Below, piece by piece: positions 3,551 to 63,613 of a stretch of 64,000 nt of DNA (the first letter of the stretch is position 1; the number at the start of each line of letters is the position of its first letter). Source of the stretch: Candidatus Dormibacteria bacterium (GTDB taxonomy: Bacteria > Chloroflexota > Dormibacteria > Aeolococcales > Aeolococcaceae); assembly GCA_051002895.1 (NCBI GenBank), contig JBPCLW010000047.1, positions 2,273 through 66,272 on the forward strand. Reading direction: 5' to 3'. Both the position numbers and the translations under genes were made by a program. The notes beneath the pieces are model-generated. The model was given only the letters and a program-made list of their open reading frames with translations, was not told the origin of the DNA and did not search any database.

Positions 3551-5424
3551 GACGTTGGCGCGGACTTGCACTTTCGTTGCTCCTTCTCACCGCTTGCTCC
3601 TCGGGGTCGCCTGCGTCACCCCCAAGCACGTCGGCCGTCTCCCATCCCAACGGCTTGGTAGCCTCCGCGACCGAGCTCGCCGCCGCACAGGGGTTGATGT
3701 TCGCCAACCGCTACGGAGCGGCAACGCAGGCATACATGGCTCTGCTGCGGGCGCATCCCGCTGACGCCACTCTCCACGCGGAACACGCGCTCCTCCTCAA
3801 CTACAGTCGCGACTTTCCCGCCGCGTACCGGGAGGCCGAGGCGGCCAGGGCGCTGGCGCCGGCCGATCCTCACGTCGCCGCCATCCGCTGCCGCGTCGAC
3901 GATTGGGCTGGTCGCCTGACTGCCGGCCTGCGGGAGTGCCGCTCAGCGGTCGCGGTGGCGCCCCGGGATGCCCTGGGCCGCCTCTTTCTTGCCGAGGCCC
4001 TGGCGGACAGTGGGGATCGGAGCGGCTTCGACGTTGCCATCACCACGGCGCGCACCCTCATTCCGGCGAGTGCTCCCGAGTATCTGCGCGCCGAGCTCCA
4101 TCGCGAGATCGCCAATGCGGCCCATGATCACGGAGATCTTGGCGGCCAGATCCAGGAGTTGCTCGCCGCCCGGGACGCTCAACCCCGCTGGATCGAGCGC
4201 AGCAGTGAACTCGTGGAGGCCTACAACGCGGCGGGAGACGTCGGCGGTGCCCGTGCGGCTCTCGACGCTCTCCTGCCACTGATGCCCGATGATGTGTCGA
4301 CTCTCAGTGCCCTCGGGGCCCAGGCAATCGCCGACAGCGACTTCACCGCGGCTCGCGTCCTCTACGACCACGCCGGGTCGTTGGCGCCACGCGACCCAGC
4401 GGTGCTCATTGCCCGAGCCGAGTGTGCCCTCACCCTCGATCACGACATCGGTGCGGCGGAGACCCTGCTGGTTGCGGCTCTCCACGACGATCCGCAGAGT
4501 TCCCAAGCGGCGGCCTATCTGCTCGCGGTTGACCGCTATCTCCTCGGCGATGATGGCCGGGCCCGAGCGACCATCGCTCAGGCATGGCGCGGTGGCGACA
4601 ACAAGGGCCTACGGGGCCGCACGCCTCCGGACCCCGATGCTCGCCAGGTGGCCGCTGGGCAGTCTGCCCTGGACGCGGTCAATCGATCCCGCAAGCAGGC
4701 CGGTCTTCCCGCGGTCACCCTCGATGCGCACCTCAGCGAGAGCGCCCAGCGGCACTCGGCGTACTGGCTCTTCAACAATGCCGATCCCACCACCGTCGGC
4801 TTGGGAATTCACCGCGAGAGCCAGGGCTTGCTCGGGTTCCGTGGCACCACCGCCGGCGCGCGGGCGCTGGCCGCCGGGTATGGCAACGGACGCATCGGCG
4901 AAGACATCACCCATCGAGGGGGTCCCACCGACGCCGTGGCGGACTGGGTGAACAGCGTGTATCACCGCTTCGCCATCGTTCGGCCCGACCTCGTCTCCAT
5001 TGGGTATGGCGAGCTCTCCGTGGGGCCCCTCCCCATGGAGGATATGGAGTTCGGTTTCGCCGTCGCTCAGCCGGCGACGGCGGTGGTGTTTCCCGGGGCC
5101 GACGTCACGGGGACACCCACTTTCTTTGTCGACAACGAGCTTCCCGACCCGGTACCGGCGGGGCAGCCGCGTACGACTGGATATCCCGTGACCGTCACCT
5201 TTGCTGCCAACGACGATGTGCAGGTGACTGGTTTCTCGCTCGCCGACCCGGCTGGAGTCAGAGTGGACGCCTATCGGCTTGACCCGTCGGTGATCACAGA
5301 GAACTCAGCGTCGCTGCTCCCCGTGGTGCCGCTGCACGGCGGCACGCGCTACACCGCGACCATCACCGCCACCGTCAACGGCGTTCCCTCCAACCGCACC
5401 TGGAGATTCACCACCGGCGGTTGA
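3547..5424 (+). CDS. secreted lipoprotein with TPR repeats and a C-terminal CAP (SCP/PR-1, YkwD-like) domain
   Basis: Lipobox signal (LLLLTACSSG); an Ala/Leu-rich TPR-like region; a CAP-domain-like block (HSAYW...GENI...VADWVNSVYHRFAIVRP); start overlaps the upstream stop. Confidence 0.55.
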   Translation: MRRWRGLALSLLLLTACSSGSPASPPSTSAVSHPNGLVASATELAAAQGLMFANRYGAATQAYMALLRAHPADATLHAEHALLLNYSRDFPAAYREAEAARALAPADPHVAAIRCRVDDWAGRLTAGLRECRSAVAVAPRDALGRLFLAEALADSGDRSGFDVAITTARTLIPASAPEYLRAELHREIANAAHDHGDLGGQIQELLAARDAQPRWIERSSELVEAYNAAGDVGGARAALDALLPLMPDDVSTLSALGAQAIADSDFTAARVLYDHAGSLAPRDPAVLIARAECALTLDHDIGAAETLLVAALHDDPQSSQAAAYLLAVDRYLLGDDGRARATIAQAWRGGDNKGLRGRTPPDPDARQVAAGQSALDAVNRSRKQAGLPAVTLDAHLSESAQRHSAYWLFNNADPTTVGLGIHRESQGLLGFRGTTAGARALAAGYGNGRIGEDITHRGGPTDAVADWVNSVYHRFAIVRPDLVSIGYGELSVGPLPMEDMEFGFAVAQPATAVVFPGADVTGTPTFFVDNELPDPVPAGQPRTTGYPVTVTFAANDDVQVTGFSLADPAGVRVDAYRLDPSVITENSASLLPVVPLHGGTRYTATITATVNGVPSNRTWRFTTGG

Positions 5425-26734: not shown

Positions 26735-27547
26735 TCAGTCCTTGGCGCGATGGTTGAATCCGCGGAGGCCGAGGCTCCCGAAGACGGTGATGGCGACGAT
26801 CAGAGCGATCGGCGTCACCCACGTGGTCATGTGAGGAACGTCGGGGATCAGGGCGGAACGAATCCCCTCACTCATGTAGGTCATGGGATTCAGGAGGGTG
26901 ACCGCCTGGAACCAGGGCAGCTTGCTGAGCAGGGGCCAGGGGTACTGCGAGCAGCCCGTGAAGATCAGCGGCGTCAGCACCAGGGCGAACACGATGTTGA
27001 TCTTCCCCGCTGCCACAATGGTCCCCAGGGAGAGGCCCATGGCGCCGCCGGCAATGGATCCCAGCACCATAACAGCGAGGAGCAGCGGCAGATTCGCAGG
27101 CACGAACGGGACCATGCCAAGAACCAGAATCCCCACCGGAAACATGACAATTCCGGCGATGAGCGCGCGTCCCGCCGCGAACACGATTTTCTCCACCGCG
27201 ACCCAGGCCGTCGGCAGCGGTGCCATCAGCCGGTCCTCGATCTCGCGGGTGAAGGAGAACTCGATCACCATCGGCAGGGCAACGCTCTGCAGGGCGGTGA
27301 GCATGATGGTCATGGCGACGATGCCGGGAAAGAGTTGGGTGGCATAGCCATTGCGGGTAAAGCCGAGGTCACTGAGCACGCGACCGAAAACAAAGAGCAG
27401 CCCCAGCGGCTGGACCAATACCTGAGCGAGAAACACCGGGAACTGCCGGAGGGTGACGACGACGTCTCGGCGGAGGATGGCCACGAAGGCGCGCCCCGCA
27501 CCGCCCCTCTGGCTGACGTGCGCGTCGAGCACCGCCGCGTCTCTCAT
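26735..27547 (-). CDS. ABC-2 type transporter permease
   Basis: Six predicted TM helices and ABC-2 family topology; 4-nt overlap with the ATPase gene. Confidence 0.75.
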   Translation of the reverse strand: MRDAAVLDAHVSQRGGAGRAFVAILRRDVVVTLRQFPVFLAQVLVQPLGLLFVFGRVLSDLGFTRNGYATQLFPGIVAMTIMLTALQSVALPMVIEFSFTREIEDRLMAPLPTAWVAVEKIVFAAGRALIAGIVMFPVGILVLGMVPFVPANLPLLLAVMVLGSIAGGAMGLSLGTIVAAGKINIVFALVLTPLIFTGCSQYPWPLLSKLPWFQAVTLLNPMTYMSEGIRSALIPDVPHMTTWVTPIALIVAITVFGSLGLRGFNHRAKD

Positions 27548-50253: not shown

Positions 50254-51181
50254 CCTCTGCGTTGCCCAGCCGGCTGCGGAAGAACTCGACAGTGCGCGGC
50301 AACCCGTCATCGAGTGCCACCTGGGGCGTCCAACCGAGCCGCTGCCGCGCCAGCGCGATGTCCAGGCAGGATCCGCGCTGCTCCCCCGGCCGCCCCGCTG
50401 CCATCTCGGCTGTAGCTGTGCTCTCGCAGGCGGTGGCAAGGCGGCGATGCAGCTGGTTGACGTCGCACGTTTCCCCTGTCCCGACGTTGTAGGCTCCCGG
50501 CGGACCGCTCATGGCGGCGACGTTGGCGGCGACAACGTCATCGACGTACACGAAGTCACGAGTCTGAGAACCATCCCCAAAGATGCGCGTGGGCTGGCCG
50601 CGGATAAGTCGTTCCGAGAAGATGGCGACGACCCCCGCCTCACCATGGGGATCCTGGCGAGGACCGTAGACGTTGCTGTAGCGCAGCGCCACGAACTCGA
50701 GGTCATTGAGCTGGGCAAAGACACCACCATAGATCTCGCCACAGAGCTTGGCGGCGCCGTACTGCGAAGCCGGCCTCGTGGGGTGCGACTCTGGCGTTGG
50801 CAGCACCTCGGTGTCGCCGTAGAGGGCACCACCGCTGGAGGCGAAGATGAAACGTCGGGCGCCAACACGCGCGGCGGCAGCGAGCAGGTTGACGGTGCCG
50901 AGGACGTTGATGTGGGTGTCGAGCTGAGGCTCGCTCACCGAGCGACGCACATCGATCTGCGCTGCCTCGTGGAAGACGGTCTCGGGGCGGAAGCGCTGCA
51001 GGACAGAGTCCATGTCCCCGTTGATGTCGAGTTCGACGAATTCCGCGACGGCATCGTTGACCTGCTCGCGGCGGCCCCGAGAGAGATCGTCAACGACGCA
51101 GACATCGTGTCCGTCGCGGATCAGCCGGTCGACCAGCGTGGACCCGATGAAGCCTGCGCCGCCGGTCACGAGGCATCTCAT
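50246..51181 (-). CDS. NAD-dependent epimerase/dehydratase (UDP-glucose 4-epimerase-like extended SDR)
   Basis: TGGAGFIGS Rossmann motif, YxxxK (YGAAK), 311 aa. Confidence 0.8.
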   Translation of the reverse strand: MRCLVTGGAGFIGSTLVDRLIRDGHDVCVVDDLSRGRREQVNDAVAEFVELDINGDMDSVLQRFRPETVFHEAAQIDVRRSVSEPQLDTHINVLGTVNLLAAAARVGARRFIFASSGGALYGDTEVLPTPESHPTRPASQYGAAKLCGEIYGGVFAQLNDLEFVALRYSNVYGPRQDPHGEAGVVAIFSERLIRGQPTRIFGDGSQTRDFVYVDDVVAANVAAMSGPPGAYNVGTGETCDVNQLHRRLATACESTATAEMAAGRPGEQRGSCLDIALARQRLGWTPQVALDDGLPRTVEFFRSRLGNAEVS

Positions 51182-56355: not shown

Positions 56356-56463
56356 GGGCCCTCGAGAAAGGCGCAGGGCGCCGGTGCGGTTGGGCTTGGT
56401 AGGACGGACATAGTCGCGCCCGGCCCTCTGCGCCTTACCATGAACCAGGATCGTGAAGGAGGG

Positions 56464-57573
56464 ATGACGGTGGCACCGAAACGGGTTCTCATCACCGGCG
56501 TCTCGCGCTTCTGGGGAGCCGAGCTGGCCGCCCGCCTCGAGGCGGATCCTGATGTCGAGCAGATCGTTGCCATCGACAGTGAGGGTCCGGCCCGCGAGCT
56601 GGCGCGCACCGATGTCATTCGGGCCGACCTGCGGCACCGTCTCATCGGCAAGCTCATCCGCGACCTCGGCATCAACACCGTCATTCACGCGGGTCTCATC
56701 GTTGACCCGCGCGGGGCGTCAGGGCGGCGGATCCACGAGTCGAACGTCATCGGGACCATGAACCTCATGGCCGCCTGCAGCGGGCCCGACTCCCCGGTGC
56801 GACAGCTGGTGGTCAAGTCCAGCACTGCCATCTACGGCAGCGAGCCCGACGATCCCTCGTTCTTCTCCGAGAGCATGCAGCGCCGTTCGCCGGCCCGCGA
56901 CAGCATCACCCGGAGCATCGACGAATTCGAGAACTACATCCGCGACTTCAGTCTCCGTCGGGCCGACACCACCGTCACCGTGCTGCGCTTCGCCAATGTC
57001 CTGGGGATCGAGAATGACACTCCGTTCGCGTCGCTCTTCGACCTCCCAGTCGTGCCCACCGTCTTCGGTTTTGACCCGCGGCTGCAGTTCATCCACGAGG
57101 ACGACGCGGTGGCGGCGATGGAGCATGCAGTGCGTGCCAATCGGCCAGGCGTGTTCAACGTAGGCGGCGACGGCATCGTCGTGCTCAGCCAGGCTGTGGC
57201 GATGCTCGGCAAGGTCAACGCGCCGGTTCTGCCCTTCATCGCTCCCGGCCTGGCGGTGGCGGCGTTGCAGCGACTCGGTCTGGTCGACTTCCCTCCCCAC
57301 CTGGCGCGGCTGCTCCAGTACGGCCGGGTGGTCGACACCACCGCGATGCGCGATGAGCTCGGATTCACGCCGGGGCATACCACCCTGGAGACGGTCGCGG
57401 ACTACGCACGGCGGCTGCGCGTGCGCAACGTCGTGGACCCGGACCCCTATACGTATGAGGCGGACCTCGAGCGCCTGTTGCGCAGCAAGGCGCGTCGCCT
57501 CGCAGGAGCGACCACGAGCAGTCGGGCACGGGCTCCGCGGCGGACGCGCAAGCCCGCGTCGACCGCGTCGTGA
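56464..57573 (+). CDS. NAD-dependent epimerase/dehydratase family protein (atypical SDR)
   Basis: VLITGVSRFWGAEL; the ATG at 56464 is preceded by AAGGAGGG. Confidence 0.7.
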   Translation: MTVAPKRVLITGVSRFWGAELAARLEADPDVEQIVAIDSEGPARELARTDVIRADLRHRLIGKLIRDLGINTVIHAGLIVDPRGASGRRIHESNVIGTMNLMAACSGPDSPVRQLVVKSSTAIYGSEPDDPSFFSESMQRRSPARDSITRSIDEFENYIRDFSLRRADTTVTVLRFANVLGIENDTPFASLFDLPVVPTVFGFDPRLQFIHEDDAVAAMEHAVRANRPGVFNVGGDGIVVLSQAVAMLGKVNAPVLPFIAPGLAVAALQRLGLVDFPPHLARLLQYGRVVDTTAMRDELGFTPGHTTLETVADYARRLRVRNVVDPDPYTYEADLERLLRSKARRLAGATTSSRARAPRRTRKPASTAS

Positions 57574-58643
57574 CCGCGCGGTCTAACGGACACCGCAAGA
57601 CCCGGCTCGACGCGCTCACCGAGGTGGCCTCGGCAGCGCGCAGCGTCGTCGCAGCCATCCCCGCCGGCGGCTCGTTGCCCCGCCTGAGACTGCCAAGTCT
57701 GAGGCGGCTTCAGCGTGATCTTCCCAACCAGGCGATGATGGCGACGGGTCAGCTAGCCATGACCTTGCGCGACCTCACCGGTCGCGACGTCATCGACCTC
57801 GAAACACTGCAGGACGTCATCGGCCTCGCGTACCGGATCCAGATGGTGCGGGGCCAGCATCGCCGCGGCGAATGGACGGTGGACGAATTTGGCTTTGACC
57901 GCGAATGGGCAGAGATCTTCCTTCCCATCTTCCGGCTCATCTACCGAAAGTATTGGCGCGTCGACACCAGCGGATTGCAGCACATCCCGCGGCGTGGAGG
58001 CGCCCTGCTGGTGAGCAACCACGCGGGAGTCCTGCCCCTCGACGGCGCCATGATCAAGGTGGCCGTGCACGAGGCCACCGATCGCCACGCCCGGGCCCTG
58101 ATCGCCACCTTTTTCGGAGGACTCCCCGCCGCGTCCTGGTTTCTCCGCCGCACCGGACAGACCCTCGGCCATCCCGACGATTCCCGGCGCCTCCTCGACA
58201 GCGGTGAGCTCGTTCTCGTCTTTCCTGAGGGCGTCAGGGGAACAGGCAAGCCGTGGAACGAGCGCTATCAACTGCGCCGTTTCGGTCGCGGCGGTTTCGT
58301 TGCCGCGGCGATTCGCTCGCAGGTCCCGATCATCCCCATCTCCGTTGTGGGCAGCGAGGAGACGTACCCCATGCTCGCTGACGTCAAGCCGCTGGCGGAT
58401 CTTCTCGGCATGCCCTACTTCCCGATCACGCCGACCTGGCCGCTGCTCGGTCCGCTTGGTCTCGTCCCCCTGCCGAGCAAGTGGAGCATCCGCTTCCACG
58501 AGCCCGTGCGCACCGATGAGATGTCTCCGGAGCGGGCTCGCGATCCGGCCCACATCATGGCGGTGAGTGACGGGGTTCGCGACGTCATTCGTGACGGCAT
58601 CGCCCGGGGACTCATGGAGCGGGTCAGGCCCTTCCGCGGTTAG
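57570..58643 (+). CDS. lysophospholipid acyltransferase (PlsC/LPLAT family)
   Basis: LLVSNHAGVLPLDG (HX4D-like block), VFPEGVRG (block III). GTG start overlapping the upstream TGA. Confidence 0.7.
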   Translation: MTARSNGHRKTRLDALTEVASAARSVVAAIPAGGSLPRLRLPSLRRLQRDLPNQAMMATGQLAMTLRDLTGRDVIDLETLQDVIGLAYRIQMVRGQHRRGEWTVDEFGFDREWAEIFLPIFRLIYRKYWRVDTSGLQHIPRRGGALLVSNHAGVLPLDGAMIKVAVHEATDRHARALIATFFGGLPAASWFLRRTGQTLGHPDDSRRLLDSGELVLVFPEGVRGTGKPWNERYQLRRFGRGGFVAAAIRSQVPIIPISVVGSEETYPMLADVKPLADLLGMPYFPITPTWPLLGPLGLVPLPSKWSIRFHEPVRTDEMSPERARDPAHIMAVSDGVRDVIRDGIARGLMERVRPFRG

Positions 58644-58664
58644 GAGCGTTTCCCCGCCTCGTGC

Positions 58665-59225
58665 TCAGAGTCCAGTGGGTAGGGGAGCGCTGGCGTGATA
58701 CTCGGGATGGTCGGCGACAACACGCGCGGAGCCGGTTCCCGATCGCACCGCCTCACGCTGTTCGGAGGTGAGTCGAAATCGCAGGAAGTGAACGCTCTCG
58801 GTGACATCGGACGGGCGGGTCTGTGCCGGCCCGGGAATCTCCTCTGCGGTCGCGCGCTGCCCATTGACGTCCAGCGCGATGTGATGCTGGAGGCCCCGCC
58901 AGCGCTGCAAGTGCGTGCGAACGGTGGATTGGTCCTCCAGTTCGACGAGCATGGTGGCAACAAACGATGTGTCATCGGGCAGCAGCCGGGTGTAGGTGTC
59001 GATTTCGCTCTGCGCCTGGGCGGCGTCGCTGATGCCTTCGACGTAGACCATTTCCTGGACCTGGTACCGCAGCGTCTCGGGTGTCTCGAATTCGAGCGCG
59101 AGTGATTCGCCGAGTTGAACGCGGCGATCGCGACGCAACGCGATCATCCGGGCACGCTCGTCAGCCCGGCGTTCCCCGTACGCCGAGCGGTCGAGGATGA
59201 GGTCATCAAGGGTGAGTGCGGTCAT
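58665..59225 (-). CDS. conserved hypothetical protein (resembles the DUF3501 family often paired with rubrerythrin)
   Basis: The ATG at 59225 is preceded by a perfect GGGAGGA SD, 3 nt after the rubrerythrin stop. Confidence 0.55.
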   Translation of the reverse strand: MTALTLDDLILDRSAYGERRADERARMIALRRDRRVQLGESLALEFETPETLRYQVQEMVYVEGISDAAQAQSEIDTYTRLLPDDTSFVATMLVELEDQSTVRTHLQRWRGLQHHIALDVNGQRATAEEIPGPAQTRPSDVTESVHFLRFRLTSEQREAVRSGTGSARVVADHPEYHASAPLPTGL

Positions 59226-59240
59226 CGGTCCTCCCACGAC

Positions 59241-59681
59241 TCACGCGGTGGTGGCCACCTGGTTGCGGACTTCGTCCAGCGACTTCTGGAAGCGGCCGGC
59301 GTGAGTCTTCTCGGCACGGGCGAGAGTGGCGAACCAATCAGCGATCTCCTCGAAGCCCTCTTCCCGCGCGGTCCTGGCAAATCCCGGGTACATCGCGGTG
59401 AACTCGTACGTCTCACCGGCGATCGACGAGGCGAGGTTTTCCTCGGTTGTTCCCATGGGCTCGTCGGTGGCGGGATCGCCGGCCGCCAGCAGGAACTCCG
59501 CGTGCCCGAAGGCGTGTCCGGTCTCCGCGGCGGCGGTGTCCTGGAACATCTCGGCAACGGGGTTATGGCCTTCCTTCTCCGCCTGACGCGCGAAGAAGAG
59601 GTACCGACGATTGGCCATGCTCTCGCCGGCAAAGGCTTCCTTGAGCGCCAGATGTGTCTTGCTTCCCTTGAGTTCGGTCAT
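59241..59681 (-). CDS. rubrerythrin-family ferritin-like diiron protein (no rubredoxin domain)
   Basis: Two ExxH diiron half-sites ([15 protein letters not shown]...AEKEGH and [14 protein letters not shown]...AEKTH). The ATG at 59681 has GAGGGA upstream and overlaps the regulator stop (ATGA). Confidence 0.75.
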
Positions 59682-60151
59682 GTGCTGTTTCCCTCGTGTG
59701 TGGTGATGGTTGGGGGGCTGCCAGCGCAGGTCGGGCAGAGGCCCTGAAATCGTAGGTCGTATCCACTGATCTCGTATCCGGTGCTCATGCTGAGGTCCCG
59801 AAGAATCGTCCGTGGCAGATGGGGTGTGACATCGAGCATCCGATTGCATCCAGTGCAGACGAGGTGGTGATGTTCAGCGATGTTCGCGTCGTACCTGGCA
59901 GCAACTTCGCCCTCGAAGACGAGCTCACGGGCACGGCCCGTCTCGACGAGAAGGCCCAGCGTGCGGTATACCGTGGCCGCGCCGACTCCCGGCATTCGGG
60001 CACGAACGCGCTCGTAGATCTCGGCTGCGTTGGGGTGATCGTCCACTGCACAGAGGGCGTCGAGCACGGCGCGTCGCTGCGGGGTCTCGCGAGCGCCGAG
60101 GTCGCTGCTGATGCTCACCCGGCGGTCCCGTCGGGACGGGCTTCCCACCAT
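59678..60151 (-). CDS. Fur family transcriptional regulator (PerR/FurA-like)
   Basis: Winged-helix N-terminus, HHHLVCTGC and C-terminal CPTC (Cys4 structural Zn site plus His-rich regulatory site). Alternative GTG start at 60118 would overlap the upstream stop as GTGA. Confidence 0.7.
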   Translation of the reverse strand: MVGSPSRRDRRVSISSDLGARETPQRRAVLDALCAVDDHPNAAEIYERVRARMPGVGAATVYRTLGLLVETGRARELVFEGEVAARYDANIAEHHHLVCTGCNRMLDVTPHLPRTILRDLSMSTGYEISGYDLRFQGLCPTCAGSPPTITTHEGNST

Positions 60152-60405
60152 TGGCACCACCAGTTCTCCCCGACGAGGACGCGGAGTTTGGGATGCCAGC
60201 AATAGGCCAGATCCTGGCGCTCGTCGATGTAGAAGAGGCAATTGCCGCAGCGTTCGTCCCCCGATGGGTGGCCGCGCAGCACAGCGTCAGTGGTCAGGTG
60301 CTGAAGCTCGCGGTTGCGCTGTTCGTCGATCTCCTTGGGCTCGGGCAGCACCCCGTCGGTCATGGGTTTCCTCAGCAAGTCGTTGGGATTGAGAATCATT
60401 CTCAC
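60115..60405 (-). CDS. small cytoplasmic HiPIP-like (high-potential iron-sulfur protein-like) Cys/Trp-rich protein
   Basis: 96 aa, GC3 ~80%, no signal peptide. Cys spacing C-x2-C-x12-C-x14-C with flanking aromatics: RCGNCLFY vs HiPIP HCANCQFM, and KLRVLVGENWWCQWW vs HiPIP KLINVNGWCASW. Confidence 0.45.
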   Translation of the reverse strand: MRMILNPNDLLRKPMTDGVLPEPKEIDEQRNRELQHLTTDAVLRGHPSGDERCGNCLFYIDERQDLAYCWHPKLRVLVGENWWCQWWEARPDGTAG

Positions 60406-60568
60406 ACATTCGTCCGCTGCACCCGGCGATCAGGAGCAGGATGCCCATATGTTGTGCCTAGGTCCCGGAGAGGCACAAGATGGCGGCGGTGCGGCTCGAT
60501 GCCTTTGCTACGATTCTTCGATGACAGGCCATGTACGGTCCGACGGGGCCGACCGCTGAGGAGCCGGA

Positions 60569-61729
60569 ATGGAGATTGAGCTGGGTCGATCGAAGCGCGC
60601 CCGTCGTGCCTTTGGGTTCGACGAGGTTGCCCTGGTCCCGGGACGCGTCACCGTCAATCCCGGGGAGATCGACGTCAGCGTCCAGTTGAACGGCACCGAA
60701 CTGAAGATCCCCTTCCTCGCGGCGGCCATGGACGGTGTCGTCGACACCGCCTTCGCCCGGGAGATGGGCCGGCTCGGCGGCCTCGCCGTCCTCAACCTCG
60801 ACGGGGTCCAGACGCGCTACGAGGACCCCGCCGGAGTGCTCGAGGAGATCGCGGCAAGCCCCGTCGAGCAGATCAATGTGCTGCTCCAGAAGCTCTACAC
60901 CCAGCCGGTGCAGGATGGCCTTATCGGCCAGCGCATCGAGGAGATCCGCAGCACCGGGGTGCCGTGTGCGGTGTCAACGATTCCCGCAGCCGCTGAGCGG
61001 CGCGCCGGCATCATCCAGGAGGCGGGAGCCACCGCCCTTGTCGTCCAGGGCACGGTGCTAACCGCCCGCCACATCAGCAAGAGCTACAAGCATCTCTCCT
61101 TCAAGGAGCTCACTGCCCAACTCGACATCCCGGTGATTGCCGGCAACTGCGTCGACTATGCAACAGCTCTGGAACTCATGGATACGGGCATCAGGGGGCT
61201 TCTCGTCGGTGTCGGGCCCGGTGCCGCCTGCACCACGCGCGCCGTGCTCGGGGTGGGGGTGCCCCAGGTCACGGCGACGAGCGACTGCGCCGCGGCGCGG
61301 GAGGACCACCTCCGGCGCAGTGGCGAACGCGTGGCCATCATCACCGACGGCGGGATGCGTCTTGGTGGTGATGTCGCCAAGGCCTTCGCCAGCGGGGCCG
61401 ACGCCGTGATGGTCGGCTCCGTCTTCGCCGCTGCCCGCGAGGCGGCCGGCCACGGCAACCACTGGGGCATGGCGACGCCAGATCCCAATCTCCCACGGGG
61501 GACGCGGATCCGCACCGGCGTCAAGGGCTCTCTCGAAGAGATCCTCTACGGTCCCGCACACGTCGACGATGGATCGATGAATCTTGTCGGGGCACTGAAG
61601 AGCGCCATGGGTGTATGCGGGGCGAGGAACCTTGCCGAGTTCCAGGACACTGAGATGGTCATCGCCCCCTCGATCAAGTCGGAGGGAAAGGTGCAGCAGC
61701 GCGACCAGAAGGTGGGGATGGGGGCCTGA
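60569..61729 (+). CDS. IMP dehydrogenase family protein lacking CBS domains (GuaB3-like)
   Basis: TIM-barrel IMPDH/GMPR fold (FLAAAMDGV..., GVGPGAACTTR, GGMRLGGDVAKA); 386 aa; the ATG is preceded by GGAG. Confidence 0.75.
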   Translation: MEIELGRSKRARRAFGFDEVALVPGRVTVNPGEIDVSVQLNGTELKIPFLAAAMDGVVDTAFAREMGRLGGLAVLNLDGVQTRYEDPAGVLEEIAASPVEQINVLLQKLYTQPVQDGLIGQRIEEIRSTGVPCAVSTIPAAAERRAGIIQEAGATALVVQGTVLTARHISKSYKHLSFKELTAQLDIPVIAGNCVDYATALELMDTGIRGLLVGVGPGAACTTRAVLGVGVPQVTATSDCAAAREDHLRRSGERVAIITDGGMRLGGDVAKAFASGADAVMVGSVFAAAREAAGHGNHWGMATPDPNLPRGTRIRTGVKGSLEEILYGPAHVDDGSMNLVGALKSAMGVCGARNLAEFQDTEMVIAPSIKSEGKVQQRDQKVGMGA

Positions 61730-62026
61730 TCGGGTCGCTCGGGGCCGACCGGGTCCTCGGGACGGACGGGACCATGCCCCTTGCGAGGACCGCCGTCTCG
61801 CAGCTTGCTGCTCGCGGCTCGCTCTCGGCGCGCTTGCATGCGCGCCTCCGAGAGCCCCGCTGCGGGGCACGCACCCCGTCCGTCCCGGTCTCGGGACCCC
61901 TTGTGGACTGTCATATCCCGAAGCGTACGAACCCCCGTTGCGCCCTCCGTCGACGCGCGTTCGCAGCCGTTGGGGCCTCTGTTAGCATCCCGCCATGGAT
62001 GGCCCGGCGGACCCTGGAAAGCGGGG

Positions 62027-63613
62027 ATGAGCACCGCCCTCGACCAATCGGAGACGATGGTCACGCCACCCGCGATCGTCCACGACACCGTTCTCGTCCT
62101 CGACTTCGGCTCGCAGTACAGCCAACTCATCGCTCGGCGTATCCGTGAGGCGAAGGTCTACGCGGAGCTCGTGCCGCCCAGCATCAGTGTCGAGGAGATT
62201 CGCCGCCGGGCACCGCGCGGACTCATCTTTTCGGGCGGACCCATGTCCGTGTACGAGCCGGAGGCACCTCGTCCAGATCCGGCCATCTATGACCTGAACC
62301 TGCCGATCCTGGGAATCTGTTATGGGATGCAGCTCCTTGCTCACCAGCTTGGCGGCGAGGTGCTGGCGGCCCCGCGCAAGGAGTTTGGCGGCGCTCAGCT
62401 CGTCATTGACGATCCCAGCGGCATCTTTGTCGACTTTCCTGTGGAGACTCCGGTGTGGATGTCCCATGGGGACCACGTCGGGCGCCTCCCCGAGGGGTTC
62501 CGCTCCGTAGCCCACTCCCTCAACTCCCCCTGCGCCGCCTTCGTGGGTCCCCACGGCCGCTACGGCATTCAGTTTCATCCCGAGGTGGTGCACACACCGC
62601 AGGGTCGACGCCTGCTGCGCAACTTCCTTCACGACGTCTGCGGTTGCTCCCCCACCTGGGAGGCGTCGTCGTTCATCGAGATGGCGGTGCAGGACATCCG
62701 CAATCGGGTGGGCTCAGGCCGTGTCCTCTGCGCCCTCTCCGGGGGCGTCGACTCTGCGGTGGCGGCAACGCTGGTGCATCGCGCCATCGGTGAGCAACTC
62801 ACCTGCGTCTTCGTCGACAACGGCCTCTTGCGCCGAGATGAGGGGGAGCGCGTCGTTGACGTCATGACCCGCCAGGAACACATCAACCTCGTTCACGTCG
62901 ATGCCGTGGATCAGTTCCTCACTGCCCTCGAGGGAGCCAGCGACCCCGAGACAAAGCGCCGCACCATTGGGCGGACGTTCATCGAGGTCTTCGAGATGGA
63001 GGCGCGCAAGCTCGGTGATATCGACTTCCTCGCCCAGGGCACGCTCTACCCCGACGTCATCGAGTCGACGTCACACGACACCCACAACGCCCAGAAGATC
63101 AAGACTCACCACAACGTTGGCGGCCTGCCTGACGATCTCCGCTTTCAGCTCGTCGAGCCCCTGCGCTACCTCTTCAAGGACGAGGTACGGCAGGTGGGTC
63201 TGACGCTGGGGCTTCCCGAGGACATGGTGTGGCGTCAGCCGTTCCCGGGACCGGGATTGGCCATTCGCTGCATCGGCGAGGTCTCAGCTGAGCGACTCGA
63301 CACCCTCCGCGCCGCCGATTGGATCGTCATCGACGAGATCAAACGCTCCGGCCTCTACCGCAAGGTCTGGCAGAGCTTCGCGATTCTCACACCCATCTCC
63401 AGCGTTGGTGTCATGGGCGACGGTCGGACCTATGCCAATGTCGTCGCCATCCGCGTCGTCGAGTCCGATGACGGTATGACGGCGGACTGGGCCAAGGTCC
63501 CCTATGACGTACTGGAGATCATCAGCCGGCGGATCGTCAACGAGGTTCCCGGGGTCAACCGCGTTGTGTATGACATCTCCAGCAAGCCGCCGTCGACGAT
63601 CGAGTGGGAATAG
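62027..63613 (+). CDS. guaA: GMP synthase (glutamine-hydrolysing)
   Basis: GATase ([26 protein letters not shown]) and ATP-PPase (SGGVDSAV) motifs; C-terminal IEWE. The ORF-track extension from 61781 is rejected. Confidence 0.9.

Follow-up and report, generated by a model that had tools for sequence, protein, structure and literature searches.

A compact unit of four genes, in which a HiPIP-like protein is encoded together with a PerR-like regulator, a rubrerythrin and a DUF3501 protein, was identified on the minus strand of a 64-kb stretch of DNA from a Candidatus Dormibacteria bacterium (the whole stretch is referred to below as the window). The four consecutive open reading frames (ORFs) lie between positions 58665 and 60405 in the order HiPIP-like protein, PerR-like regulator, rubredoxin-less rubrerythrin and DUF3501, and judging from the sequence they make up one unit behind an operator of the Fur/PerR type. 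This gene order had already been proposed in the initial annotation of the window, and it is established by the ORFs together with Pfam matches for the last three genes (FUR, E 1.5e-22; Rubrerythrin, E 2.5e-25; DUF3501, E 4.7e-52).

The arrangement suggests a self-repressed peroxide-stress operon of the PerR type that brings its own electron relay to the rubrerythrin. The PerR-like repressor with Fe(II) would occupy a palindrome at 60390-60404, overlapping the likely promoter; hydrogen peroxide would oxidise the histidine ligands of the repressor and so release it, and all four genes would then be transcribed as a single message. The first product would be an 82-amino-acid (aa) cytoplasmic protein of the HiPIP fold with a buried Cys4 [4Fe-4S] cluster, and it may serve as a one-electron relay that tolerates oxidants and returns the diiron site of the rubrerythrin to the reduced state. 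It would thereby take over the job of the rubredoxin domain fused to classical rubrerythrins, and presumably also that of RFO, a CCG-domain Fe-S oxidoreductase, in other clusters of the aerobic type, while DUF3501 is possibly a docking adaptor. The induction by peroxide and the electron transfer to the rubrerythrin are inferred here, the donor role from gene context, and the mechanism as a whole is regarded as plausible, if a little short of probable.

The HiPIP-like protein and its relatives

The small protein carries four cysteines in the pattern C39-x2-C42-x12-C55-x14-C70 (82-aa numbering), which is the order and spacing found in HiPIPs (C-x2-C, then ~12-16 and ~13-14 residues). When it was compared with the Pfam HIPIP model (PF01355), as had been suggested at the outset, the window protein reached 18.5 bits (E 2.5e-3) and stayed below the gathering threshold of 22 bits, but 50 of 55 family members matched the same model at E <=0.1 (best 2.6e-5). 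No other model recurred among them, and two relatives carry a precomputed PF01355 label. The HiPIPs 1hpi and 8z82 ranked first in a single-sequence search against the PDB, and a profile with divergent members reached the Halorhodospira HiPIPs 1pih and 2hip at E 1.7e-5, seven of the eight PDB profile matches at E <=1 being HiPIPs.

In every alignment C39, C42, C55 and C70 pair with the cluster-ligand cysteines of 1hpi, 1pih, 2hip and 8z82. These four residues are the most conserved positions of the family and are invariant, along with V64, down to ~30% identity; the aromatic cage residues Y45, W56, W68, W69, W72 and W73 are invariant in the family as well. The cysteine pattern and aromatic cage recognized in the initial annotation are therefore well founded. 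The structure prediction recommended there also gave a clear outcome: with divergent representatives in the alignment, which were needed because an alignment of the 55 close homologues alone gave a pLDDT (predicted local distance difference test) of 48, AlphaFold returned a confident model whose top structural matches were HiPIPs, and the predicted fold superposes on them at 1.6-2.6 A over 53-60 residues. As far as alignments and modelling can tell, the small protein is a divergent, signal-less protein with the HiPIP fold, and it very probably binds a Cys4 [4Fe-4S] cluster.

No twin-arginine (Tat) motif or hydrophobic N-terminal segment was found in the 82-aa protein, in the longer 96-aa ORF or in the family consensus, and the N-terminus is acidic (MTDGVLPEPKEIDEQ...) throughout the family. 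The absence of an export signal, noted earlier for the window protein, thus extends to its relatives, and since there is no Tat signal the protein is taken to be cytoplasmic. The small ORF is also unlike a chance reading frame, given its GC content at third codon positions of 0.82, similar to that of the neighbouring genes, and the 60-70% identity of its product across Actinomycetota and Myxococcota.

HiPIPs of the classical kind are exported by the Tat system, for which they serve as model substrates, and carry electrons in the periplasm for photosynthetic and respiratory chains. Compared with those of Ectothiorhodospira/Halorhodospira (1hpi, 1pih, 2hip), Rhodothermus marinus (3h31) and Allochromatium vinosum (1hip), the window protein is alike in its length of ~70-85 aa, the C-x2-C...C...C ligand order, the CxNC and GWC-like motifs, the aromatic cage and the fold. 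It differs in having no Tat signal, a sub-threshold Pfam score, an extra conserved N-terminal helix (PEPKEIDE...LRG) and a WWCQWWE motif; in addition, its family is found in Actinomycetota and Myxococcota, and the window gene stands under a PerR-type box. Similarity to the HiPIP-fold accessory subunits of glycyl-radical enzymes (benzylsuccinate synthase TutG/beta and the small subunit of 4-hydroxyphenylacetate decarboxylase) is weaker; those are obligate parts of anaerobic radical enzymes, and no such enzyme is encoded here.

A profile search of a whole library of 1.84 billion proteins at E <=1e-3 yielded 160 representatives at 50% identity, which form a compact family and mostly have short match lengths, and no obvious canonical HiPIPs, the weak matches not being individually checked. 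Because this search did not obviously reach the canonical proteins, the case for a link to HiPIPs is made by the fold and by the searches of PDB and Pfam. The small protein is best described as belonging to a separate and tight sister family with the HiPIP fold. The family numbers 962 clusters at 90% identity, and all source names encountered for its members were 'hypothetical protein'. A WhiB-like protein was considered and rejected, the cysteine spacing and the fold matches being of the HiPIP type and not of the WhiB type; for a zinc finger the support consisted of a CxxC-driven Pfam match at E 0.05 only. Some members of the family have two tandem HiPIP-like domains per polypeptide (P0177, 171 aa; P0082/P0083, 153 aa; P0191, 161 aa; P0201, 147 aa), with two matched stretches each in P0177, P0191 and P0201, and in another (P0317, 265 aa) an apparent HiPIP-like N-terminus is joined to a hydrophobic C-terminal region.

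Genomic linkage and the candidate operator

The rubrerythrin of the window consists of PF02915 only, without a rubredoxin domain. Its PDB matches include the Burkholderia pseudomallei rubrerythrin (4di0/9onm, E 3e-54) and the Sulfolobus sulerythrin (1j30, E 2e-50), and from these closest relatives it belongs to the 'aerobic-type' lineage of Cardenas et al. (PMC5114695). The co-occurrence of rubrerythrin and DUF3501 was described in the same work, with DUF3501 as a conserved partner of aerobic-type rubrerythrins and RFO as the third usual partner in Rbr–RFO–DUF3501 clusters (PMC5114695); a HiPIP-like gene is not mentioned in it. No ORF with CCG plus CxxCxxCxxxC motifs, as expected of RFO, was found in the 64-kb window, nor by the same motif test in the 17 syntenic genome loci described below, the test having been validated on RFO-positive loci (Pfam CCG and Fer4 / 4Fe-4S dicluster domains). 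Neither a rubredoxin gene nor a second HiPIP-like gene occurs in the window, so that the lack of rubredoxin pointed out initially holds for the rubrerythrin domain and for the whole 64 kb. The DUF3501 family profile matches a structural-genomics structure that is itself uncharacterised (3fjv, 'uncharacterized novel protein'; E 4.8e-47). The window DUF3501 protein cannot bind a cluster through cysteines of its own, as it has none, and a role as adaptor between the rubrerythrin and an Fe-S partner is conceivable.

The HiPIP-like family was found in at least 587 genomes when one genome per GTDB species was scanned. Synteny was counted in the best 80 loci of these genomes, all 80 being metagenome-assembled genomes; 68 belong to Actinomycetota (Acidimicrobiia, Mycobacteriales, Frankiaceae and others), 11 are of Myxococcota type and one is labelled Gammaproteobacteria. 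Linkage to rubrerythrin and DUF3501 was observed in 17 of the 80 loci and in three architectures. The order HiPIP-like–PerR–Rbr–DUF3501 accounts for 15 loci, and the order Rbr–HiPIP-like–DUF3501 for two Myxococcota loci (L071, 4283-5577, and L072, 4419-5803; Sandaracinaceae and Polyangiaceae) that have no adjacent Fur-family gene and no box. In these two the HiPIP-like gene sits in the RFO slot of Rbr–RFO–DUF3501. The synteny, whose conservation the initial annotation had proposed to check, is thus recurrent, but it is confined to about a fifth of the loci and most copies are solo. Rubrerythrin, DUF3501 and PerR were nevertheless the only neighbour set to recur across two phyla and three gene orders, whereas clustering of the neighbours of the solo genes revealed only lineage-specific synteny (with a GlpD-like FAD oxidoreductase, a phosphoribosyltransferase and an S9 peptidase).

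The reverse approach, in which 80 metagenome loci were anchored on DUF3501, showed that (PerR)–Rbr–RFO–DUF3501 and PerR–Rbr–DUF3501 are both common. Among clusters without RFO that had enough upstream sequence, 7 of 19 contain the HiPIP-like gene, compared with none of the 15 RFO-containing clusters (Fisher p = 0.011, a value that ignores relatedness). In the closest HiPIP-less relatives (L085 and L092), membrane proteins resembling cytochrome oxidase subunits or assembly factors, as judged from translated sequences only, lie beside the cluster, downstream of DUF3501.

The regulator has B. subtilis PerR (2fe3) as its closest PDB match, at E 2.4e-20, and it shows the Fur-family fold (PF01475) with a structural Cys4 zinc site, its CTGC and CPTC motifs aligning with C96/C99/C136/C139 of the B. 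subtilis protein. It retains H37, D85, H91, H93 and D104 (B. subtilis numbering, checked against the 2fe3 alignment; Asp, not Glu), the five metal ligands of the PerR regulatory site. The same five residues and the Cys4 set are kept in all 44 aligned Fur-family proteins from related rubrerythrin clusters. The top NCBIfam matches were PerR models at 100.3 and 95.7 bits, below the equivalog cut-offs of 200 and 180. With all PerR metal ligands conserved, the description of this gene as PerR-like was upheld.

A perfect 7-1-7 inverted repeat, TGAGAATGATTCTCA, lies on the minus strand 26 nucleotides (nt) upstream of ATG 60363, which places it at the presumed promoter of the PerR-like gene's own unit, and it is proposed as the candidate operator of the PerR-like repressor. 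It resembles Fur/PerR boxes, which have the consensus forms TGATAATNATTATCA and TTATAATNATTATAA. No other site in the window matches it with <=1 mismatch, the remaining matches needing three. Those with three mismatches fall at 2350-2364, 27298-27312 and 50565-50579, and with both operator strands counted there are five palindrome matches in the window against 0.75 expected by chance. A possible extended -10, TGTGAGAAT, was read by us from the sequence at 60406-60398, where it overlaps the operator; a scan with the sigma-70 consensus found no promoter, and neither terminator-like match looked meaningful.

The box is conserved with the gene cluster. A TGAnAAnnnTTnTCA-type box (<=2 mismatches) precedes the HiPIP-like gene in 12 of the 17 syntenic loci, as against 3 of the 63 non-syntenic ones. 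Near-identical boxes (TGAGAACGGTTCTCA, TGAGAATCGTTCTCA and TGAGACTCGTTCTCA) stand directly before perR in close relatives that have no HiPIP-like gene, and it follows that the box goes with whichever gene opens the unit. The window and its Mycobacteriales-like relatives have a single box, located upstream, and their HiPIP-like stop codon touches or overlaps the start of perR. In loci of the Acidimicrobiia type (L011, L014-L016, L021, L024, L029, L048, L061, L105 and L110) the two genes are ~120-170 nt apart and each has its own box, TGACAACGATTGTCA before the HiPIP-like gene and CGACAATCGTTGTCA before perR. From the sequence, this arrangement appears to consist of two operator-controlled units compared with the single unit of the window, and given the separate boxes the HiPIP-like gene would belong to the regulon under two independent architectures. 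Fur-type boxes were also seen just upstream of two 'solo' HiPIP-like genes, in L032 (~4974-5234; TGATAATCGTTCTCA) and L002 (~4600-4900; CGACAACGATTGTCA), with no rubrerythrin, DUF3501 or Fur gene within reach, which suggests that regulation may occur in trans in some genomes.

Proposed electron supply to the rubrerythrin and competing explanations

The electron donor of aerobic-type rubrerythrins has been treated as an open question (PMC5114695; bioRxiv 10.1101/2025.06.01.657255), and the 2025 structural study goes no further than to speculate about operon partners in the donor role (bioRxiv 10.1101/2025.06.01.657255). Several observations argue for the HiPIP-like protein in this role. It appears to be co-regulated with the rubrerythrin in two architectures, it is linked to rubrerythrin and DUF3501 in three gene orders across two phyla, and it seems to occupy the position of RFO and to be mutually exclusive with RFO in cis. 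A buried, aromatic-caged cluster would also suit a protein made under peroxide stress. The rubredoxin-like and diiron sites of rubrerythrin have unusually positive potentials, near +200 to +300 mV. HiPIP potentials range from ~+0.05 to +0.5 V (PMC10654088), so the potentials of the two proteins overlap.

A number of points weigh against the relay. The majority of the loci surveyed (63 of 80) carry the HiPIP-like gene solo in unrelated contexts, most of them without a box. In 12 of the 19 Fur–Rbr–DUF3501 clusters without RFO, no HiPIP-like gene lies close by, and a hidden Markov model scan of such HiPIP-less loci detected no divergent HiPIP-like ORF; presence of the gene in cis is thus no requirement. 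No substitute small cysteine protein was found in the three HiPIP-less loci inspected. Furthermore, a carrier of 82 aa cannot alone replace an oxidoreductase of ~440 aa, and a reductase would still be needed; none is evident in the operon. In vitro, the ferriperoxin of Hydrogenobacter (H.) thermophilus needs no more than FNR and NADPH to work (PMC3317640), and for this reason a dedicated carrier may not be required.

The many solo copies may instead point to a general oxidant-robust cytoplasmic carrier with other partners, for example as a replacement for oxidant-labile ferredoxins, that was recruited to the PerR regulon in some lineages; its position next to the rubrerythrin would then reflect co-regulation and not a dedicated redox partnership. 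The diverse, non-recurrent contexts of these copies fit such a function, as do the RFO-less rubrerythrin clusters without the gene in cis, and the wide distribution and strong conservation of the family (at least 587 species genomes, 962 clusters at 90%) would be in keeping with a housekeeping protein. On the other hand, a general carrier does not account for rubrerythrin, DUF3501 and PerR being the sole recurring neighbour set over two phyla and three orders, for the filling of the RFO slot in Myxococcota, or for the failure of the gene to co-occur with RFO in one cluster (0/15), and this explanation is considered unlikely, although it deserves serious attention. That the protein handles iron or Fe-S clusters or is structural, whether as a cluster or iron reservoir, as a chaperone for metallation or repair of the rubrerythrin or PerR following damage by peroxide, or as a Cys4 mini-protein binding zinc, is improbable. 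Both rubrerythrin and PerR need iron, and four invariant cysteines could bind zinc, in line with the weak zinc-finger match mentioned above; yet the fold, ligand spacing and aromatic cage fit true HiPIPs better than other families, the HiPIP fold is built around its cluster, and no known Fe-S assembly genes are nearby.

The initial annotation had also raised the option of a redox-sensing partner of the PerR-like protein. Such a partner would sense redox state or iron, and translational coupling would set the stoichiometry of a complex that modulates repression. The close junction of the two genes in the window and its closest relatives agrees with this idea. However, the spacer with its own operator splits the genes in Acidimicrobiia, the Myxococcota gene has no neighbouring regulator, most copies lie far from any Fur-family gene, and PerR-type regulators with identical ligand sets occur in HiPIP-less clusters; with the gene so often detached from perR, a sensing partner is very improbable.

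For the arrangement there are clear precedents, the first of which also speaks for the electron relay to rubrerythrin. In Desulfovibrio (Nitratidesulfovibrio) vulgaris, perR-rbr-rdl is a co-transcribed set with a palindromic PerR box, and its products are PerR, a rubrerythrin and a small redox protein with a Cys4 iron site (PMC545781). A PerR-type regulator, a rubrerythrin and a small Cys4 protein behind a palindromic box are common to both systems, in the window as read from the sequence. In D. vulgaris the regulator comes first, the rubredoxin domain is fused to a rubrerythrin of the classical type and the small protein resembles rubredoxin; in the window a small protein of the HiPIP fold comes first, the rubrerythrin is rubredoxin-less and of the aerobic type, and DUF3501 is present. 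The Rbr–RFO–DUF3501 clusters, such as the B. pseudomallei and S. tokodaii operons (Cardenas et al., 2016; PMC5114695), share with the window a sulerythrin-like rubrerythrin beside DUF3501 and often have a PerR-type regulator upstream, whereas the window has the HiPIP-like gene and no RFO, either in the cluster or elsewhere in the stretch. The system therefore combines two known themes, the operon of PerR, rubrerythrin and small redox protein and the aerobic-type Rbr–DUF3501 cluster, with a new component standing where RFO or rubredoxin would be. The claim that the arrangement is undescribed holds to the extent that no published description of the HiPIP-like family or of the arrangement was found in the literature on DUF3501, on HiPIP with rubrerythrin and on cytoplasmic actinobacterial HiPIP, but the precedents PMC545781 (perR-rbr-rdl) and PMC5114695 (Rbr-RFO-DUF3501) restrict its novelty.

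A broader proposal, that an unnamed and widespread cytoplasmic HiPIP family of Actinomycetota and Myxococcota feeds rubredoxin-less rubrerythrins under PerR control and so replaces RFO, is put forward tentatively and must be called rather doubtful. If true, HiPIPs would here be credited for the first time with an antioxidant role in the cytoplasm, and the question of which protein reduces aerobic-type rubrerythrin peroxidases would be answered. The known roles of the HiPIP fold would grow with a conserved family from Gram-positive lineages that lacks a signal. Aerobic-type rubrerythrins are widespread, and in at least one organism they matter for growth under aerobic conditions (PMC3317640). 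The locus offers a concrete and easily expressed donor candidate; with a defined operator and three natural gene arrangements the question is directly testable in vitro. Furthermore, since the family is annotated as 'hypothetical protein' without a Pfam assignment, its recognition would improve the annotation of hundreds of genomes.

Gene boundaries and neighbourhood

The features of the unit are collected in Table 1. For the small protein the initial annotation had given a length of 96 aa, which was not sustained. All of the ~40 aligned homologues begin at an M-T/S-D equivalent to ATG 60363, a Shine-Dalgarno sequence lies 5 nt before this codon, and of four near-identical contigs three carry a gene call of 82 aa and one a call of 94 aa; the length is accordingly 82 aa. 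The start of the 96-aa ORF, GTG 60405, is a mechanical maximum and falls on the 15-bp operator palindrome.

Table 1 Features of the four-gene unit in the window
Feature	Position	Strand	Remarks
Candidate operator, perfect 7-1-7 inverted repeat TGAGAATGATTCTCA	60390..60404	-	Overlaps possible extended -10
Shine-Dalgarno GAGGA	60369..60373	-	5 nt upstream of ATG 60363; read from sequence
HiPIP-like protein, 82 aa, signal-less; predicted [4Fe-4S] ligands Cys39/42/55/70; Trp-rich WWCQWWE	60115..60363	-	
PerR-like Fur-family regulator	59678..60151	-	157 aa from ATG 60151, or 146 aa from GTG 60118
'Aerobic-type' (sulerythrin-like) rubrerythrin, 146 aa, no rubredoxin domain	59241..59681	-	PF02915
Shine-Dalgarno GGGAGGA of DUF3501 gene	59229..59235	-	Read from sequence
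DUF3501 protein, 186 aa, no cysteines	58665..59225	-	PF12007

The first two junctions were found as originally described. The HiPIP-like stop codon (60117-60115) overlaps the regulator start GTG 60118 as GTGA and lies 34 nt inside the regulator when this is read from ATG 60151, both starts being used by gene callers. The stop TGA of the regulator (59680-59678) and the ATG of the rubrerythrin (59681-59679) have ATGA in common, at 59681-59678. The third junction had been given as a 3-nt gap between the rubrerythrin and DUF3501 genes with a GGGAGGA Shine-Dalgarno sequence, a statement that contradicts itself, because GGGAGGA (59235-59229) would fall inside the ORF that starts at GTG 59237. The likely DUF3501 start is ATG 59225, 15 nt past the rubrerythrin stop and 3 nt past the GGGAGGA; gene calls on the three contigs with a complete gene gave 186 aa on two and 187 aa on the third.

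An Rfam search of 58000-61000 found nothing. The GC content of the window is 66.6%. One flank of the unit consists of a divergently transcribed IMPDH-family gene (60569-61729, plus strand) and a GMP synthase gene (61781-63613, plus strand), and the other of convergent genes for an acyltransferase (57570-58643, plus strand) and an NAD-dependent epimerase (56440-57573, plus strand). The same flanking genes were seen on near-identical metagenome contigs from several samples.

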